Below are positions 1 through 5,088 of a stretch of 5,088 bases of DNA, piece by piece. Origin of the DNA: a virus. Lineage: Duplodnaviria; Heunggongvirae; Uroviricota; Caudoviricetes. Made by a program: the position numbers and the translations under genes. Under the pieces are notes generated by a model. The model saw only the letters and a program-made list of their open reading frames with translations, made no database searches and was not told where the DNA came from. The stretch lies in the IMG/VR virus record IMGVR_UViG_2681813320_000010, positions 1 through 5,088 of that record; one strand, written 5' to 3'. The stretch's first letter is position 1, and every line of letters starts with the position of its first letter.

Positions 1-799
1 TTCCGGCATCCACATCACCAGGCCAGAGAGCGTAGGCCAGTTCGTCATCCAGTGTTTTCCATGTCTGCTTGTATTCGCGATGAATGGCAGCAATGACCAG
101 GCTGATTTTTCCTGTTGAATTTTCAGTGTGCTGTTGATTGACTCTGGCGCGGGCGAGATCAACAACAGACGTGTATTTTCCGGTTTCCTTGCGTTCACCT
201 TCGCGACGTTTTTTCCAGATGCGCATCTCTGCCTGAATTTCGGGCCATTTGGCACCAGGCTTACATTTATGCTTAACCCACCCGATGGCATGCAGCTTAA
301 GCTCCGGATACATGGCGTTAACTTCTGGCATTTTCATCAACGCTTCAACGATATGTCCGTCGAATGTTGCCATGTCTTCCTGCAACAATTCCTGTGCGCT
401 AATAACCATATCAACGGTGATGTTTTCACATGTGTCGAACTTAACCATGACAGCGTTCTGTACTTCAGGGGCCAGCTTGTCAAAAGTGACGTTCATCGGA
501 TCGGATTCAGTCTCAACCGGGACAAAGGAAGCAGACTCCTCATCCCAGCGGTTTTCCTGCATATATTCAGCATCCCAGGAATCGAGGGCAGGGCGGGGTA
601 TACCGGGTTTATCCTCGCAGACAAGAAATTTATAAGCGCAGTCCTGAGCAGCCGGATAATGTTCCAGGAATTGCCAGTGAAATTTTGCGCGGGCGCGACG
701 TTCATCACCGGCTTCAATGGCAGTGGCTACAGCGACGGCACCTTCTTCCTTTATTGCCTGTTCGTCCGGAATGGCGGCGCAAATAAAGACTTTACTCAT
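1..799 (-). CDS. Hypothetical prophage early-region protein, N-terminal 266 codons (3-prime end lies beyond the window start)
   Basis: Minus-strand frame is open from ATG at 799-797 to the window edge (manual translation, begins MSKVFICAAIPDEQAIKEEGAVAVATAIEAGDERRARAKFHWQF). Composition is acidic and protein-like. GAGGT Shine-Dalgarno lies 8 nt upstream. The track ORF 128..859 (+) is its Phe/Cys/His-rich antisense shadow. Function not recognised; position suggests a recombination or early-left module gene, which is positional inference only. Confidence 0.6.
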   Translation of the reverse strand, partial: MSKVFICAAIPDEQAIKEEGAVAVATAIEAGDERRARAKFHWQFLEHYPAAQDCAYKFLVCEDKPGIPRPALDSWDAEYMQENRWDEESASFVPVETESDPMNVTFDKLAPEVQNAVMVKFDTCENITVDMVISAQELLQEDMATFDGHIVEALMKMPEVNAMYPELKLHAIGWVKHKCKPGAKWPEIQAEMRIWKKRREGERKETGKYTSVVDLARARVNQQHTENSTGKISLVIAAIHREYKQTWKTLDDELAYALWPGDVDAG

Positions 800-891
800 T
801 TTGTTTTACCTCATTACAGATTTAAGGGTGAACAAATCCCTGCCATTGCTGGCATATAAGAATGAAACCGGATATTTATTACGGAACTGTT

Positions 892-1083
892 TTAAAGACC
901 TGCCGGGATTTCGTTATTATCCTGGTGAATAACTTTATCGACCGGGTAACAGTTACCGGGAATTTTCTGTTCTGCTGCGGCAGCCATGCATTCTTTCATT
1001 GAGTTGTACATGCCGGTGATTGCATCAAGCGACTCACCAGTATTGAGATATACAGTCAGAATGAGTATGAATAATGTGTTCAT
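892..1083 (-). CDS. Small hypothetical protein (63 aa) with hydrophobic N-terminal segment, candidate small membrane protein
   Basis: ATG at 1083-1081 preceded by GGAGAG Shine-Dalgarno (5-nt spacing); the track ORF 892..1089 starts 2 codons earlier at GTG. Product MNTLFILILTVYLNTGES... has a hydrophobic stretch at the N-terminus. Its start overlaps the stop of the upstream gene in an ATGA junction. Stop TAA at 894-892. Confidence 0.45.
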   Translation of the reverse strand: MNTLFILILTVYLNTGESLDAITGMYNSMKECMAAAAEQKIPGNCYPVDKVIHQDNNEIPAGL

Positions 1084-1268
1084 CGCCACTCTCCGAAAAT
1101 ACCGAGTTTAAGAAGGGCAATTCTGGAGAGTATGGAATTGTCATTCAGCAGGTAGGGTTCATATTTTCTCATATTGATTGCATCCTCGGTGAAATCCCTG
1201 TTACTGAGCAGAACACCAATATTAAAGCACCCGTCAGACGTATTAACGTTTGGTAGTGACGTTTCCAT
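1080..1268 (-). CDS. Small hypothetical protein (62 aa), translationally coupled to the downstream small membrane protein gene
   Basis: ATG at 1268-1266 with GAGGA Shine-Dalgarno 7 nt upstream. The longer track ORF 1080..1373 starts at GTG with no ribosome-binding site and runs through the inverted repeat, so the shorter start is preferred. Stop TGA overlaps the next ATG (ATGA). Confidence 0.4.
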   Translation of the reverse strand: METSLPNVNTSDGCFNIGVLLSNRDFTEDAINMRKYEPYLLNDNSILSRIALLKLGIFGEWR

Positions 1269-1285
1269 TATCGCGTCCTCAACAA

Positions 1286-1433
1286 TGAATTTTGTGATGC
1301 GGTGCCTGGTGCCTCCAGGTGACGTTAACCAGTTAACAATTAACGCCGGATACAGAGAATCCACCCATAACACTGTTTTTGGTTTTAACTGTTCCGCGTG
1401 CGCTCAGCCGCATTCACCACATCACAAAATTCA
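1286..1433. repeat. 19-bp imperfect inverted repeat pair bracketing a 110-bp spacer
   Basis: 1286-1304 TGAATTTTGTGATGCGGTG; 1415-1433 CACCACATCACAAAATTCA, the reverse complement with 1 mismatch (18/19). The spacer 1305-1414 holds a GGTGCCT tandem direct repeat (1301-1314), a CCTGG/CCAGG palindrome and three closely spaced TTAAC motifs (1325-1344). The left arm ends 18 nt upstream of the ATG at 1268. Confidence 0.6.
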
Positions 1434-1827
1434 CTTTAAAAAGGGCGGCAGAGCAGTCACGGAGTAAAACTGATACCGCCAAAAGTCACCAGAAAATTGA
1501 TAACAGAGGGCGTTGCAGCGGAGTTGTCACTTAAGCGTATGGTCAACCTGACAACCCGGTGTCCTCAACGGGGGAAGGAATAACCCCGCCATACTTACCG
1601 CCGCGCCATTTCGCGGAGTGCCACAACCGGAAGCGCACGGTCGAACTAAATTTAACGACACCGTACAGAGAGACCAATTTCGCCGTGCGCTTTCGCGTTA
1701 TGCCCTGACTTTTCAGGGACATATCCTTTCAGTAAACTGTCAGTGCCGGATGTTCACCCGTGTCCGGCGCACGCACTCCACCTGACCCGTGGAGAACTCC
1801 TTAATTACCAACCCTCAGGAGGGTGAA
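1434..1827. other. ORF-poor, GC-richer structured intergenic region between the plus-strand 92-aa gene and the minus-strand small-gene operon
   Basis: No ORF of 60 codons or more in any frame across about 1468-1788. By hand count about 57% GC over 1541-1700, against AT-rich flanking small genes. Hairpins: CCGCG-ccattt-CGCGG (about 1600-1616), CCCTGA-cttt-TCAGGG (1703-1718), GCCGGA-12nt-TCCGGC (about 1744-1767). GTGCGC/GCGCAC recurs four times. Weak candidate plus-strand promoter: -35 TTTTCA at 1710-1715, -10 TAAACT at 1733-1738. Confidence 0.4.
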
Positions 1828-2106
1828 ATGGATAAAAAGCAAATTGAGGCCCTGCAATCTATTATTGAAAAACAAGATGAAGCTATCAGGATTCTTTCAT
1901 ATCGCACTGATATGATACTAAATATGCTTTCTGCATTAACGGCTGCGCTTGGTGGTACAAAAACAAACGTATACCGCGAAGTTGTTATTCAACAGATAGA
2001 TAAATTTGAAAAAACCATACCAGGTATTAATGCTCATCTTGCAGAACAAGAGAAAGACCATGCTCTTATGGCAATTTCTTCAGTAGCTCTCCCGAAAGTT
2101 GAGTAG
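1828..2106 (+). CDS. Hypothetical 92-aa coiled-coil-like protein, transcribed opposite to the surrounding early-left genes
   Basis: ATG at 1828 preceded by strong AGGAGGG Shine-Dalgarno (1817-1823); the track ORF begins upstream at GTG 1789 with no ribosome-binding site. Product MDKKQIEALQSIIEKQDEAIRILSYRTDMILNMLSALTAALGG... is balanced and heptad-like. Stop TAG at 2104-2106. The 3-prime 41 nt overlap the convergent 133-aa gene. Confidence 0.5.
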   Translation: MDKKQIEALQSIIEKQDEAIRILSYRTDMILNMLSALTAALGGTKTNVYREVVIQQIDKFEKTIPGINAHLAEQEKDHALMAISSVALPKVE

Positions 2107-2467
2107 TTTTAATTGTTGTTTTGAAATAATCACTGCTTTCACATTTGAGTGATTTCATGGCAATCCAAATGCGGGCCTCTGTGCCTGCATTTGGTTCCAG
2201 TTGCTGTAGACGTTTTGCGTCTTCCAAAAGTAAGGCGATAATGTGTTTCAGCTTCTCATCATTTGCTTGATTCTTGTTTTCAGGCGAATTCTGTCCGCCG
2301 AATAGGCGCTTCTCTTCATACAGACCTATAAAGGCACGACGCACGTTACCGGATATAGTATCGATGGTTTCCTTTTCTACAGTACTCAGGTCAAGAGTCG
2401 CCAGTTGAGAGCGAACCACATTCGCTGCCATTTCCTGGAATGGCATTGGTAAATCTTTAAATTCCAT
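2066..2467 (-). CDS. Hypothetical early-left protein (133 aa)
   Basis: ATG at 2467-2465 with GAGG Shine-Dalgarno 6 nt upstream, 22 nt after the stop of the upstream 72-aa gene (operon-like). Protein-like composition (MEFKDLPMPFQEMAANVVRSQLATLDLSTVEKETIDTISG...). No family recognised. The last 13 codons overlap the plus-strand gene, so the true 3-prime end is uncertain. Confidence 0.5.
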   Translation of the reverse strand: MEFKDLPMPFQEMAANVVRSQLATLDLSTVEKETIDTISGNVRRAFIGLYEEKRLFGGQNSPENKNQANDEKLKHIIALLLEDAKRLQQLEPNAGTEARIWIAMKSLKCESSDYFKTTIKTTQLSGELLKKLP

Positions 2468-2489
2468 TATTAGCCTCGTTGGTTAGCTA

Positions 2490-2708
2490 TTAACGTGGGT
2501 ATGTAACCATTCTGGCAATGCTTAATGCCGCTGCTTTTTCCAGCCTGGTGATATCCTGCTCCAGAGCGGACAGATTTTCAGCCTGCTTAGTCCTGGCTTC
2601 ATTGGCCCATTTCAGATCCTGCGCTGCATTAATTTTCTGGCGCATCCACTCATAAAGTTCATCATCGGTATAGTCTGGCGCGATGATGACGGGTTCTCGT
2701 TTCTGCAT
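2490..2708 (-). CDS. Hypothetical small early-left protein (72 aa), predicted helical/coiled-coil
   Basis: ATG at 2708-2706 with GAGGAA Shine-Dalgarno 6 nt upstream; stop TAA at 2492-2490. Product MQKREPVIIAPDYTDDELYEWMRQKINAAQDLKWANEARTKQAENLSALEQDITRLEKAAALSIARMVTYPR is charged and helix-prone. No family recognised. Confidence 0.5.
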   Translation of the reverse strand: MQKREPVIIAPDYTDDELYEWMRQKINAAQDLKWANEARTKQAENLSALEQDITRLEKAAALSIARMVTYPR

Positions 2709-2737
2709 ACTGATTCCTCGCGGTGCTGTTTCGCTTA

Positions 2738-2866
2738 TCAGCCGTTAGATTTTGCCGAACTGGAAAGCGCCTGTTTAAATTCGTTGAAGCTGAGAGCTTC
2801 TTCGCCTTCGGCAAGACCTTCGAAGTATTCTTCGTAAGCCTTTTCCATGATTGTGTCGAAATCCAT
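2738..2866 (-). CDS. Small acidic hypothetical protein (42 aa), absent from the ORF track because it is short
   Basis: Manual translation from ATG 2866-2864 to TGA 2740-2738: MDFDTIMEKAYEEYFEGLAEGEEALSFNEFKQALSSSAKSNG. AGGTGA Shine-Dalgarno-like sequence upstream; ATG lies 1 nt after the stop of the upstream 51-aa ORF. The overlapping track ORFs 2662..2871 (-) and 2723..2920 (+) have basic or antisense-like low-complexity products and are considered shadows. Resembles the small Rac-prophage ydaF/ydaG-type genes by size and position, from memory only. Confidence 0.4.
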   Translation of the reverse strand: MDFDTIMEKAYEEYFEGLAEGEEALSFNEFKQALSSSAKSNG

Positions 2867-2867
2867 A

Positions 2868-3023
2868 TCACTCACCTGAGTTTCTTTCCAGCCAGCGACG
2901 GGCACCATTTTCGGTTTTAAACGTTTTGCTTTTGGTATACGTCATCGCGGTGAACGTACCGTCCTGGTTGGGGAACACGCCACATACCAGAGATTCGCTG
3001 TTGCCAAGATCGATAGTATCCAT
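2868..3023 (-). CDS. Small hypothetical protein (51 aa); first gene after the candidate OL/pL region (alternative upstream start at 3104 would give 78 aa)
   Basis: ATG at 3023-3021 with GAGGT Shine-Dalgarno 4 nt upstream: MDTIDLGNSESLVCGVFPNQDGTFTAMTYTKSKTFKTENGARRWLERNSGE; stop TGA 2870-2868. The track ORF extends to ATG 3104 with an N-rich hydrophobic extension of doubtful coding character. Start choice is unresolved. Confidence 0.45.
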   Translation of the reverse strand: MDTIDLGNSESLVCGVFPNQDGTFTAMTYTKSKTFKTENGARRWLERNSGE

Positions 3024-3199
3024 GCTGACCTCATTTCCCCTTAACGCCGGGGTAGCGGAACAAAAACCTGCTGCATAGTTATTAAAGTTGAACCCTGCCG
3101 TCATGTTCTTACGCCTCGGGCTGGCTACTTAACCCCTGACCACTGCCGGGTAACTCGAAGTATTGCCTGGCGTTCTGTGGGGCGGGGTGGGTTGATGAA

Positions 3200-3250
3200 T
3201 GAACAATACCACTACTATTTAATTATGTAAATAGCAGTGCTATTATCGTG
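3200..3250 (-). promoter_or_regulatory. Candidate OL/pL-like operator-promoter region for the early-left operon
   Basis: Overlapping palindromes: CTATTTA-ATTATG-TAAATAG (3215-3234) and AAATAG-CAGTG-CTATTA (3229-3245), plus a degenerate copy CAATAC-CACTA-CTATTT (3204-3220); same half-site family as the OR region. Candidate minus-strand promoter: -35 TTTACA (3229-3224), 17-nt spacer, -10 TATTGT (3206-3201). Lies between the terminator of the repressor operon and the first early-left gene. Confidence 0.4.
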
Positions 3251-3252
3251 GC

Positions 3253-3278
3253 AAGAAAAAAACCACCCGAAGGTGGTT
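3253..3278 (-). terminator. Rho-independent terminator of the repressor-antitoxin-toxin operon
   Basis: On the minus strand: 7-bp stem AACCACC/GGTGGTT with a UUCG tetraloop (plus 3261-3278), followed by a U-run (plus 3256-3260 AAAAA; transcript GGUGGUUUUUUUCUU). Begins 15 nt downstream of the toxin stop codon (3295-3293). Confidence 0.7.
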
Positions 3279-3292
3279 GTTGACAGGAAGGA

Positions 3293-3583
3293 TTAACAGG
3301 TTTTGTTTGGATACTGTCTTCGTGAGTGAACTACATTTACGATCTCGATGTTAGATGCTGTTACTCGGTAAAGTATTATGTAGTTAGGATGAGTCACTAT
3401 CTCACGAAGACTTGGAACTCTTTCGCTCGGTGGGTACAGATAAGGGTGTTCAGTAAGTGACAAAACTGATGTTTCAATGCGTATTTTTAGTCTACGTGCA
3501 GCGGGAGGGTTTTCCTTAGCAATATAGGCTACGATCTGACGTAAATCATCACGTGCAGAAGGTAGCCATAAAATGGGCAGCAT
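3293..3583 (-). CDS. parE: Type II toxin, ParE/RelE superfamily (ParE-like), 96 aa
   Basis: Product MLPILWLPSARDDLRQIVAYIAKENPPAARRLKIRIETSVLSLTEHPYLYPPSERVPSLREIVTHPNYIILYRVTASNIEIVNVVHSRRQYP shows the ParE pattern: W-x-x-x-A-x-x-DL-x-x-I-x-x-YIA, an R-x-L/I-E region, R-E/L-V/I then YRV then I-x-I-x-x-V-x-H, and a terminal RQ-x-P. ATG overlaps the upstream antitoxin stop by 1 nt (TAATG). Family assignment is from memory of ParE sequences; parE is a family-level symbol only. Confidence 0.8.
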   Translation of the reverse strand: MLPILWLPSARDDLRQIVAYIAKENPPAARRLKIRIETSVLSLTEHPYLYPPSERVPSLREIVTHPNYIILYRVTASNIEIVNVVHSRRQYPNKTC

Positions 3584-3774
3584 TACTCACTCCTGTTCGT
3601 TGCAGCTAATTGAGCAATAAGGTTTTCCATTTCAGCCATTACTTCGTCATGTGGAATTGCAGGACGGGGATCTGAGAGGCTTGCTGCCACTTTGGTTCGC
3701 AACCATTCGTTATAGCTGTTTTCTTGTTCGACTGTTTCAAATTCAGAAATTATCGGGGAAAGGGCTGTACTCAT
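3583..3774 (-). CDS. paaA: Small antitoxin (63 aa) paired with the ParE-like toxin; resembles PaaA-type antitoxins of three-component ParE systems
   Basis: ATG at 3774-3772 with GGAGG Shine-Dalgarno 7 nt upstream, 17 nt after the repressor stop; stop overlaps the toxin start. Product MSTALSPIISEFETVEQENSYNEWLRTKVAASLSDPRPAIPHDEVMAEMENLIAQLAATNRSE is small, acidic and likely disordered, typical of type II antitoxins. The PaaA-like call rests on gene order and recollection, not a search; paaA is a family-level symbol only. Confidence 0.7.
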   Translation of the reverse strand: MSTALSPIISEFETVEQENSYNEWLRTKVAASLSDPRPAIPHDEVMAEMENLIAQLAATNRSE

Positions 3775-3791
3775 GTTTTTACCTCCTCAGA

Positions 3792-4292
3792 TTAGGCGCG
3801 ACGACCCTTTTGCGCAGCTAGCCATCGCGCAACGATTTCTTCAATTGATTCTTTTTTCTCCTTCATTTCCTTAAGCATTTTCTCTTTATCTTCTTTGGGG
3901 AAAGCCCTGAACGTCTGGAGCAAATCCCGCTCCATGGGGTCTATATTAAACGGAAGTTCGTTTTCCGATTGTTCCATATCTGCAGATATAGTGACAACAT
4001 TGTCCTCCCCAGATTCTTGGGGATACATCCTTACAATTTGTAACAACTCGGCCATATCTGGTCTGATTGACTCGGGAGGAACTTGCAGCAACCCTGCGAA
4101 CTTGATAACAGCCTCAAGATTTAAAGGTGTCTGACCATTTAGATAATGGCTTACAGCTCCCTGTGTCGAAAATCCCAGAATTTCTGCCGCACGCTCTTGG
4201 GTTAACCCTAGTTGATTTTTTTTCGCCGTCCAGATTTCTTTCAGTCTCTGGGCGGCTTGCAGGTCGATCTCTGACAGGGATTTTCTTTTCAT
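3792..4292 (-). CDS. paaR: HTH (XRE/Cro-CI family) transcriptional repressor, 166 aa; CI analogue and first gene of the repressor-antitoxin-toxin operon
   Basis: N-terminal helix-turn-helix signature LTQERAAEILGFSTQGAVSHYLNGQTP. C-terminal region is Lys/Glu-rich with no recognisable LexA/S24-type autocleavage motif. Divergent from the Cro-like gene across an operator-rich 107-bp region. AAGG ribosome-binding site almost abuts the ATG, so the leader is poor. paaR is assigned by operon architecture, moderately confident. Confidence 0.8.
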   Translation of the reverse strand: MKRKSLSEIDLQAAQRLKEIWTAKKNQLGLTQERAAEILGFSTQGAVSHYLNGQTPLNLEAVIKFAGLLQVPPESIRPDMAELLQIVRMYPQESGEDNVVTISADMEQSENELPFNIDPMERDLLQTFRAFPKEDKEKMLKEMKEKKESIEEIVARWLAAQKGRRA

Positions 4293-4399
4293 ACCTTCAA
4301 TTCTAATAAGATTATTAATCTCTTTGAAATAGTGATGCTATTTACTTTTAAAAATAACAATGCTATTAATGATCGTGATGACATCACATGAGGTGAACA
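4293..4399. promoter_or_regulatory. Candidate OR-like divergent operator-promoter region between repressor and Cro-like gene
   Basis: Two 17-bp palindromic sites spaced 25 bp centre to centre: AAATAG-TGATG-CTATTT (4327-4343) and AAATAA-CAATG-CTATTA (4352-4368). A separate perfect palindrome GTGATG-a-CATCAC (4375-4387) sits just before the GAGGTG Shine-Dalgarno of the Cro-like gene. Candidate rightward promoter: -35 TTTACT (4341-4346), -10 TATTAA (4364-4369), overlapping the operators. Confidence 0.55.
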
Positions 4400-4675
4400 A
4401 TGAATCTTGGAGAATATTTGCATCATTCCGGTATAACTCAGAAGCATTTTGCTGAAATTGTTGGGGTAACCCAAGGGATGGTAAGCCATGTCATTACCGG
4501 ACGGGCGAAACTTACGGGGAAAAAAATTTTACGCTGGTGCGAAGCAACAGGCTGGATAGTAACTCCGCACGAGATTGATGGCAGTACTTATCCCAACCCA
4601 ACCGACGGCTTACCTGTCGAGTATCAGGCTAACACACAACCAGAGGCGGGGGTGATTCATGAAAATCAAGCATGA
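4400..4675 (+). CDS. ydaS: Cro-like HTH DNA-binding protein, YdaS-type (91 aa)
   Basis: ATG at 4400 with GAGGTG Shine-Dalgarno 4 nt upstream. HTH signature ITQKHFAEIVGVTQGMVSHVITG. Divergent from the repressor and followed by an overlapping YdaT-like gene, the arrangement of the Rac-type ydaS-ydaT pair. Assignment from motif and synteny. Confidence 0.75.
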   Translation: MNLGEYLHHSGITQKHFAEIVGVTQGMVSHVITGRAKLTGKKILRWCEATGWIVTPHEIDGSTYPNPTDGLPVEYQANTQPEAGVIHENQA

Positions 4676-5084
4676 ACACATCCGCATGGCAATGAATGCC
4701 TGGGCGCATCCGGACGGCGAAAAAGTACCGGCTGCGAAAATTACCAAAGCGTATTTCGAGCTGGGAATGACGTTCCCGGAACTGTATGACGACAGCCATC
4801 CGGAAGCCCTGGCCCGTAATACCCAGAAAATTTTCCGTTGGCTGGATAAAGACACCCCTGATGCTGTTGAAAAAATGCAGGCTCTGTTACCGGCGATCGA
4901 AAAGGCGATGCCGCCTTTGCTGGTGGCCCGTATGCGCAGCCACAGTTCTGAATATTACCGTGAGATCGTCGAACGGAGGGATCGGCTGGTGAAGGATGTC
5001 GATGATTTTGTTGCGTCAGCGGTTGTTTTGTATGACCAGATGAATCGCGGCGGCCCGGCAGGGAATGCTGTGGTGATGCACTAA
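4659..5084 (+). CDS. ydaT: YdaT-like protein (141 aa), CII analogue of Rac-type immunity regions
   Basis: Begins MKIKHEHI, which I recall as the N-terminus of Rac-prophage YdaT. Overlaps the 3-prime end of the Cro-like gene by 17 nt in another frame. G-rich ribosome-binding site (GGGGGTG) upstream. Stop TAA 5082-5084. Assignment from recollection and synteny. Confidence 0.75.
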   Translation: MKIKHEHIRMAMNAWAHPDGEKVPAAKITKAYFELGMTFPELYDDSHPEALARNTQKIFRWLDKDTPDAVEKMQALLPAIEKAMPPLLVARMRSHSSEYYREIVERRDRLVKDVDDFVASAVVLYDQMNRGGPAGNAVVMH

Positions 5085-5088
5085 AAGC

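Follow-up and report, generated by a model that had tools for sequence, protein, structure and literature searches.

Which proteins read the family of 17-bp palindromes that lies on both sides of a prophage repressor operon? The question is raised by positions 1 to 5,088 of IMG/VR record IMGVR_UViG_2681813320_000010, a Caudoviricetes sequence whose whole stretch of 5,088 nucleotides is called the window below. According to Pfam and to the RefSeq annotation of near-identical Escherichia coli prophages, this is the immunity region of a lambdoid prophage. A regulator, a PaaA2 antitoxin and a ParE toxin are encoded in this order on consecutive minus-strand open reading frames (ORFs), and the regulator, a 166-aa repressor, is transcribed divergently from a Cro-like gene that is followed by a YdaT gene, an analogue of CII. 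An earlier reading of the letters alone (the sequence-only reading) had proposed that the palindrome AAATAG-N5-CTATTT recurs in right (OR) and left (OL) operator-like regions and represents CI-type operators that define an immunity specificity. We consider it highly probable that four 17-bp dyads, probably accompanied by a weak fifth one at 4304-4320, are the operators of a lambdoid immunity switch composed of the repressor and the Cro-like protein.

Operator-like dyads at both ends of the repressor operon

The pattern AAATAR-N5-CTATTW was found at only three loci in the window, compared to none in 200 dinucleotide-preserving shuffles (mean 0.00, maximum 0). These loci, at 4327-4343, 4352-4368 and 3229-3245, carry the half-sites AAATAR/CTATTW as the sequence-only reading had described. 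The fourth site, at 3204-3220, had been regarded as a degenerate copy and shows two mismatches to the strict consensus. When up to three mismatches are allowed, the number of matches in the window is not above chance (6 observed vs 2.9 expected), and such a copy is therefore not justifiable by its motif match alone. For the same reason, our argument relies on exact matches, position weight matrix (PWM) scores and conservation. The site at 3204-3220 was accepted because of its position, 25 bp from the site at 3229-3245 as in the OR spacing, and because a well-conserved site is found there in relatives; with a PWM score of 19.0 bits, the degenerate copy proved to be real.

The four sites are arranged as two pairs with a centre-to-centre distance of 25 bp in each, the first in the 107-bp intergenic region between the repressor and cro-like genes and the second just past the repressor-paaA-parE operon and its terminator. 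In the orientation of the outward promoters, their full consensus is the 17-bp dyad AAATAGCA-N-TGCTATTT. The letters of the proposed YRRTG-like 5-bp spacer are present, but they are not a spacer and instead form the inner part of these longer half-sites. A PWM built solely from the four window sites assigns them 19-23 bits, whereas the next best matches reach 13-14 bits (14.1 at most) in 46 kb and 41.5 kb of DNA around identical or near-identical prophage copies (L001 and L002). No comparable further copies were thus found in these two regions, through which the motif is not spread at a similar frequency, and the motif was not found in the ~33 kb of scanned host flanks.

The proposed overlap with divergent promoters holds for the predicted pRM (the promoter of the repressor operon) and for the predicted leftward promoter pL, both of which were listed by a consensus promoter scan, and is matched by a rightward promoter pR read from the sequence at the equivalent position (Table 1). 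Relatives have their pR, with TTTACA or TTGACA, at this same position. pL and pR align base by base over ~50 bp; in both, the distal site ends in the -35 element and is followed by an 8-bp spacer and by the proximal site with the extended -10. The terminator that closes the repressor-paaA-parE operon ahead of OL is conserved in two relatives (L014 and L005). A second 'terminator-like' hairpin listed by the scan, at 3210-3239, was rejected as a terminator and corresponds to the two OL half-sites pairing together. In the region of the predicted pR start and cro 5' untranslated region, there is also a perfect palindrome GTGATG-a-CATCAC (4374-4386, plus strand), which is not conserved in the closest relatives L014 and L005.

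Between pRM and the repressor gene, the -10 element ends 7 nt before the ATG, a suitably spaced Shine-Dalgarno sequence is lacking, and relatives retain the layout TTCAAA-N17-TAGAAT-N6/7-ATG; the repressor mRNA is therefore probably leaderless. Leaderless mRNAs were shown experimentally for paaR2 and lambda cI (PMC8630535).

The same short interval harbors the weak fifth dyad, which the sequence-only reading had not listed. This dyad occupies the bases 12-28 bp ahead of the repressor ATG, and 23 bp separate its centre from that of the OR2-like site. In relatives this site is positionally conserved as GATTAGYAAWMCTATTA, scoring 14.1 bits in L012 and 11.5 bits in L008. It is probably a weak OR3 equivalent, although promoter conservation could explain part of the similarity. 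The operators detected are thus two strong sites and a weak one at OR and two sites at OL, rather than three plus three.

Table 1. Predicted operators, promoters and genes of the immunity region (window coordinates)
Feature	Position	Strand	Sequence	Description
OR1-like operator	4352-4368		AAATAACAATGCTATTA	exact pattern match; overlaps pR spacer and extended -10
OR2-like operator	4327-4343		AAATAGTGATGCTATTT	perfect AAATAG-N5-CTATTT; overlaps pR -35; centre 43 bp upstream of repressor ATG
Weak OR3-like site	4304-4320		GATTAATAATCTTATTA on minus strand	overlaps pRM spacer and -10; PWM only 5.7 bits
OL1-like operator	3204-3220		CAATACCACTACTATTT (AAATAGTAGTGGTATTG in pL direction)	promoter-proximal; overlaps pL extended -10; PWM 19.0
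OL2-like operator	3229-3245		AAATAGCAGTGCTATTA (TAATAGCACTGCTATTT in pL direction)	promoter-distal; overlaps pL -35; exact pattern match; PWM 23.2
Predicted pL	3203..3231	-	-35 TTTACA (3231-3226), 17-bp spacer, TG-extended -10 TATTGT (3208-3203)	consensus promoter scan
Predicted pRM	4300..4328	-	-35 TTCAAA (4328-4323), 17-bp spacer, -10 TAGAAT (4305-4300)	consensus promoter scan
Inferred pR	4341..4369	+	-35 TTTACT (4341-4346), 17-bp spacer, TGc + TATTAA (4364-4369)	sequence reading
Intrinsic terminator	3261..3278	-		7-bp stem with 4 G-C pairs, then T run; terminator scan
Repressor gene	3792..4292	-		166 aa; Pfam HTH_3; lambda-CI-like N-domain, disordered linker, PaaR2-type helical C-domain
PaaA2-family antitoxin gene	3583..3774	-		63 aa; Pfam PaaA2 E = 1e-21
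ParE-family toxin gene	3293..3583	-		96 aa; Pfam ParE_toxin E = 6.6e-18
Cro/YdaS-like gene	4400..4675	+		91 aa; Pfam HTH_3
YdaT-family gene, CII analogue	4659..5084	+		141 aa; Pfam YdaT_toxin (PMC8630535, PMC9986795)
DicF small RNA	1443-1494	-		Rfam RF00039, 75.8 bits, full length

Conservation and exchange of the sites among related prophages

An independent test was provided by relatives of the repressor, of which 31 were obtained in a search of 5.8 billion proteins. A search of genome contigs with the repressor N-domain found nothing, and the relatives came via protein homology search and the contigs that encode them. An alignment of 17 repressors (45-89% identity to the window protein) shows strict conservation of the recognition helix region GF.TQGAVSHY. 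Nine loci whose repressors are 45-83% identical to that of the window (L005, L006, L008, L009 and L011-L015; 53.5 kb in total) were scanned with the window-derived PWM, resulting in 32 matches of at least 14 bits compared to 0.3 in shuffles.

The arrangement of the sites is conserved along with the motif. In eight of the nine relatives, as well as in the window, the centres of the OR pair lie 42-43 and 66-68 bp upstream of the repressor (MKRK) ATG; the pair of L013 is found at -54 and -80 from an assigned start that is probably mis-set. A second pair, 24-26 bp apart and 500-2960 bp downstream of the repressor start, occurs in eight of the nine. In L006, the proximal site alone reaches 10 bits downstream of the repressor, with a weaker candidate, AAATACTCAGACTATTG, 25 bp upstream of it. 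Among 34 distinct sites, little or no variation is seen at positions 2-5 (AATA) and 13-16 (TATT), and the left half-site, although outside any promoter element, is conserved as strongly as the right one. These sites are kept regardless of the cargo of the operon, which comprises PaaA2/ParE, HigB/HigA, a HipA-like protein with DUF3037, or nothing recognisable. The cargo slot downstream of the repressor varies (for instance, L006 3612-4339 and L011 3787-5360, and likewise in L008, L009 and L013), with the OL pair always beyond it, and looks swappable by comparison of these loci.

Some relatives differ in the architecture of the repressor itself. Proteins P0014-P0021 (loci L009-L012 and L015) are repressors of 240-255 aa with two helix-turn-helix (HTH) domains before the PaaR2 C-domain, the first of the lambda-CI-like type and the second resembling the N-domain of the PaaR of an O157 'type B' locus. 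Type-B operators were looked for in the loci of these tandem-HTH relatives and none were found; the loci carry AAATAG-type sites only. With respect to distribution, 72 of 5,426 complete E. coli genomes contain 80% or more of the 1.55-kb immunity module; outside E. coli, relatives come from E. albertii, Shigella sonnei and Salmonella. None of the deposited phages carries this repressor; the best-matching protein shows 52% identity to it across the N-domain.

Negative controls were provided by two loci that share the backbone of the window but encode other repressor N-domains, namely the O157 'type B' locus (L003) and the phage Evi locus (L004). Their best scores with the window motif are 10.8-11.1 bits, and both have palindromes of their own at OR and OL. 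In L003, ACAATAAAAAACTGT occurs exactly four times, twice at OL (2369-2408) and twice at OR (3404-3442), 24-25 bp apart, and hence this locus presents the same two-plus-two architecture with a third predicted specificity. L004 encodes the published PaaR2 together with GTTTAGTAA inverted repeats and has no AAATAG-type sites; conversely, GTTTAGTAA-type repeats were not found in the window.

In a BLAST comparison of the window with L003 and L004, ydfA, the pL leader, parE, paaA and the repressor C-domain are homologous. The homology breaks from ~3923 to 4584, that is, over the repressor N-domain, OR and the Cro N-terminus, and resumes in the 3' end of cro and in ydaT. At OL, all three types contain a type-specific island of ~60 bp inside almost identical flanks. 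Operators, repressor N-domain and Cro HTH are thus exchanged together, a classical hallmark of immunity specificity in lambdoid phages. The Cro recognition helix SQGMVSH agrees with this pattern, being conserved in the motif-bearing loci and different in L003 and L004. The proposal that the sites define an immunity specificity is therefore supported: the motif travels with the recognition helices of both regulators, and other palindromes are found where the repressor N-domain is replaced.

The predicted regulators and alternative readings of the sites

Residues 2-90 of the repressor are homologous to the N-domain of lambda CI (phmmer against PDB, E ~1e-9 to 1lmb and 7jvt), at ~38% identity. 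An AlphaFold model of the protein (mean pLDDT, the predicted local distance difference test, 77; N-domain ~90) consists of an N-terminal part with five helices, a linker (92-113) that is disordered, and a helical hairpin at the C-terminus. When this model was compared to PDB by Foldseek, the top 10 matches were all lambda CI N-domains (identity 32-39%), with target-normalised template modelling scores of 0.83-0.93 for nine N-domain entries and 0.40 for the 199-residue chain of a lambda-186 hybrid repressor. The acidic residues E33 and E37 align in phmmer with E34 and D38, the positive-control positions of lambda CI. The C-terminal 44 aa have another affiliation, being 55% identical to the C-terminus of PaaR2 (E = 3e-16), and there is no N-domain similarity to PaaR2. 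No Peptidase_S24/LexA-type domain was found in the repressor by Pfam, so that the term 'CI-type' applies to its DNA-binding side only. The CI-type operator architecture that had been proposed is thus supported by the gene layout, the N-domain homology, the overlap with predicted promoters, the co-inheritance and the precedent of prophage CP-933P; a LexA-like domain is absent, and three full sites were not detected on either side.

The Cro-like protein shares the HTH of the repressor (...TQGMVSHVITG vs ...TQGAVSHYLNG; BLASTP E = 2e-7 across the HTH), and the resemblance of TQGMVSH to TQGAVSH lies within the recognition helices. This similarity bears on the alternative that survives best, in which the sites are bound by one regulator only, for instance as operators of the Cro/YdaS-like protein while the 166-aa repressor would have another target. 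The two proteins are not distinguishable by sequence analysis, and the study of the homologous CP-933P system did not settle exactly which sequences PaaR2 and YdaS recognise, proposing two overlapping types of repeats (PMC8630535). However, TQG[A/M]VSH is common to both window proteins, and the motif is conserved together with each of the two helices. Apart from the weak third site, OR and OL show no sign of a second repeat family, and the footprints of PaaR2 and YdaS overlap (PMC8630535). We therefore regard a single reader as unlikely and continue with operators shared by the repressor and the Cro-like protein.

Less probable still, and in our judgment very unlikely, is an origin of the repeats as duplicated promoter sequence, with pL and pR being paralogous AT-rich promoters with UP-like elements and no protein-binding dyad. 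The ~50-bp alignment of pL and pR would fit this scenario, as would the right half-sites, in which the -35 and extended -10 elements are embedded. The left half-sites (AAATAGCA), in contrast, are not promoter elements, yet positions 2-5 mirror positions 13-16, and such dyad symmetry is the signature of a dimeric HTH protein. Moreover, the motif changes wholesale with the repressor N-domain while the flanks stay ~100% conserved. Recognition by the PaaA2-ParE complex or by a host factor, as might be suspected from classical type II operons that are autoregulated by the antitoxin at upstream palindromes, was rejected as the least probable explanation, since PaaA2 is without a DNA-binding domain (PMC8630535), the sites persist in relatives with HigBA, HipA-like or no toxin-antitoxin cargo, and the motif is absent from the scanned host flanks.

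Several points weigh against operators shared by the two phage regulators. The third OR site is weak in the window (5.7 bits), and no third OL site was detected by PWM scan of the window or by alignment with relatives, which leaves the analogy with lambda incomplete. pR agrees with the consensus at 8 of 12 positions and for this reason was not listed by the promoter scan. The conservation of the right half-sites may partly reflect promoter function, as CTATTGAC contains a -35 and TGcTATTnT an extended -10. Several of the relatives' loci are kin to each other and hence are not fully independent samples. The repressor C-domain is not of the lambda type, and for cooperativity and looping the PaaR2 reports are the sole basis. 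Finally, the searchable literature yielded no binding or expression data on this immunity type and nothing on the site sequences or the protein accession; for PaaR1 and PaaR3, only papers on type VI secretion PAAR proteins matched.

The switch that we infer from the motif statistics, positions, homology and co-inheritance would work as follows. Repressor dimers would bind the dyads through their lambda-CI-like HTH N-domain, and the Cro/YdaS-like protein, with its near-identical recognition helix, would compete for the same sites. Cooperative occupancy of OR1 and OR2 would cover the -10 and -35 of pR and thus shut off cro-ydaT and the replication genes beyond. Lambda CI activates pRM from a position equivalent to the OR2-like site, and the window repressor, bound 43 bp upstream of the leaderless start, may likewise activate pRM through its acidic patch (E33, E37). 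The OR3-like site over the pRM -10 would allow autorepression, or repression of pRM by Cro. On the other side of the operon, occupancy of OL1 and OL2 would cover pL and silence the ydfA...dicF-dicB (kil-type) operon, while paaA-parE would be co-transcribed from pRM up to the terminator before OL, placing the toxin-antitoxin pair under control of the repressor. The PaaR2-type C-domain would supply oligomerisation and cooperativity, possibly including a 1.1-kb OL-OR loop. In the absence of an S24 domain, induction would not proceed via RecA-stimulated cleavage.

Relation to known immunity systems and neighboring genes

The kind of switch is known from lambda and from PaaR2/YdaS/YdaT; the present operator consensus and a repressor combining a lambda-CI N-domain with a PaaR2 C-domain were not found in the searchable literature, nor are they carried by any deposited phage genome. 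The lambda operator is likewise a 17-bp dyad. Measured from the PRM start, the sites of lambda are centred ~19, 42 and 66 bp upstream; in the window, the corresponding distances from the repressor start are ~20, 43 and 68 bp. Further shared features are the homologous repressor N-domain with five helices and a basic N-terminal arm, the probably leaderless repressor mRNA and the second operator cluster at pL, beyond the terminator that closes the repressor operon. On the other hand, the half-site differs (TATCACCG in lambda), OR and OL of the window have two strong sites each, and the S24/LexA-like C-domain is absent from the window repressor, so that RecA-stimulated autocleavage is not expected. 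The Cro-like protein belongs to HTH_3 and shares the recognition helix of the repressor, a trait found in 434 and P22 but not in lambda Cro; YdaT is the analogue of CII, and toxin-antitoxin cargo takes the place of rexAB.

Two remoter relatives of the N-domain are the CI of some Stx2a-converting phages, such as Lyz12581Vzw (L016 2865-2995), and the 'DicA' of Rac-SA53 (L017 2840-2968). Their N-domains are 52-54% identical to that of the window repressor, their genes have the divergent layout, and their palindromes contain AATAG/CTATT-like half-sites. However, their recognition helices are QGAVSQLLN and QGTVSQYLN, their operators are of a mixed ATTAG/CTAAT type with at most 13 bits by the window motif, and the CI of the Stx phage carries a LexA-type (S24) C-terminal domain. 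These two proteins and the window repressor may form a graded series of specificities.

The closest functional precedent is CP-933P. Jurenas et al. (2021) showed by DNase footprinting that PaaR2 and YdaS bind the 97-bp paaR2-ydaS intergenic region, and gfp reporters demonstrated that each of them represses PR, PRM and PL; repeats of a similar kind are present at a PL that follows the CP-933P toxin-antitoxin genes, and PaaR2 is without an autocleavage motif (PMC8630535). PaaR2 was reported to be octameric in work cited by the mBio paper, and CP-933P/Sp12 was reported to be unresponsive to mitomycin C. The window shares with CP-933P and phage Evi the gene order repressor-paaA-parE, flanked by a terminator and PL/OL and, on the opposite side, by divergent ydaS-ydaT, as well as the repressor C-domain, homologous PaaA2, ParE and YdaT, a probably leaderless repressor start, and operators that recur at OR and OL and overlap PR, PRM and PL. 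In contrast, PaaR2 starts with MQKKE and has an N-domain (PDB 7nkv) that is sequence-unrelated to the lambda-CI-like one of the window repressor, the Cro HTH differs, and the operators are GTTTAGTAA-type 18-bp repeats rather than the dyads of the window. Identity with the published PaaR2 system was therefore rejected, as homology of the regulatory and cargo proteins is limited to the C-domain, PaaA2, ParE and YdaT.

A broader interpretation can be offered tentatively, and we hold it to be possible without favoring it. The window repressor would be a natural hybrid of a lambda-CI N-domain and a PaaR2 oligomerisation domain that rebuilds the OR geometry of lambda, with a conserved sigma-contact acidic patch and OL-OR pairing but no RecA-cleavable domain. 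It would represent a widespread undescribed immunity group of Escherichia, Shigella and Salmonella, whose operon is a swappable slot for ParE, HigB or HipA-like toxin-antitoxin or defence cargo, and some members of which possess a second HTH of another immunity type.

The predicted sites provide a concrete operator consensus and a promoter map for an immunity group, from which superinfection immunity and cross-repression among co-resident prophages could be predicted. The natural chimera could be used to ask how far the logic of the lambda switch depends on the N-domain and the site geometry rather than on the C-domain. The proposed regulation would also explain the silence of paaA-parE and of the dicF-dicB cell-division inhibitors in these lysogens. 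The current understanding is not overturned by these results; instead, the 2021 PaaR2 model would be extended to a second specificity.

Beyond OL, the leftward genes comprise a recE-like exonuclease gene, a DUF1482 gene, dicB, the DicF small RNA and ydfC-ydfB-ydfA. The finding of DicF identifies the putative pL-driven unit as a cell-division-inhibitor operon of the Qin type (ydfA-ydfB-ydfC-dicF-dicB), which the putative OL operators would control; pR is predicted to drive the cro-like and ydaT genes. In the latter region, GTGATTCATGAAAATCAA at 4652-4669 (plus strand) has one mismatch to the YdaT operator TTGATT-N6-AATCAA and lies at the ydaS end and ydaT start, the location of the OM site and PRE of CP-933P (PMC9986795). 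It is likely to be a site of the CII analogue for establishment transcription of the repressor.

Several minor observations concern the leftward region and the integrated prophage. A leader of ~170 nt separates pL from the annotated ydfA start (~3024-3196, minus strand); it is near-identical in the three immunity types and includes the G-rich run CCCACCCCGCCCCACAGAAC. An overlapping ORF call of 78 aa (2868-3104) probably over-extends ydfA. In the two genomes that were inspected, the prophage sits beside ompW or potC. In strain fS10a, the closest complete-genome hit (L001, 99%), the region ~21279-22247, compared with window positions ~1270-1400, contains an extra insertion of ~860 bp, which codes for a Rha-family regulator with a dicB fragment alongside.

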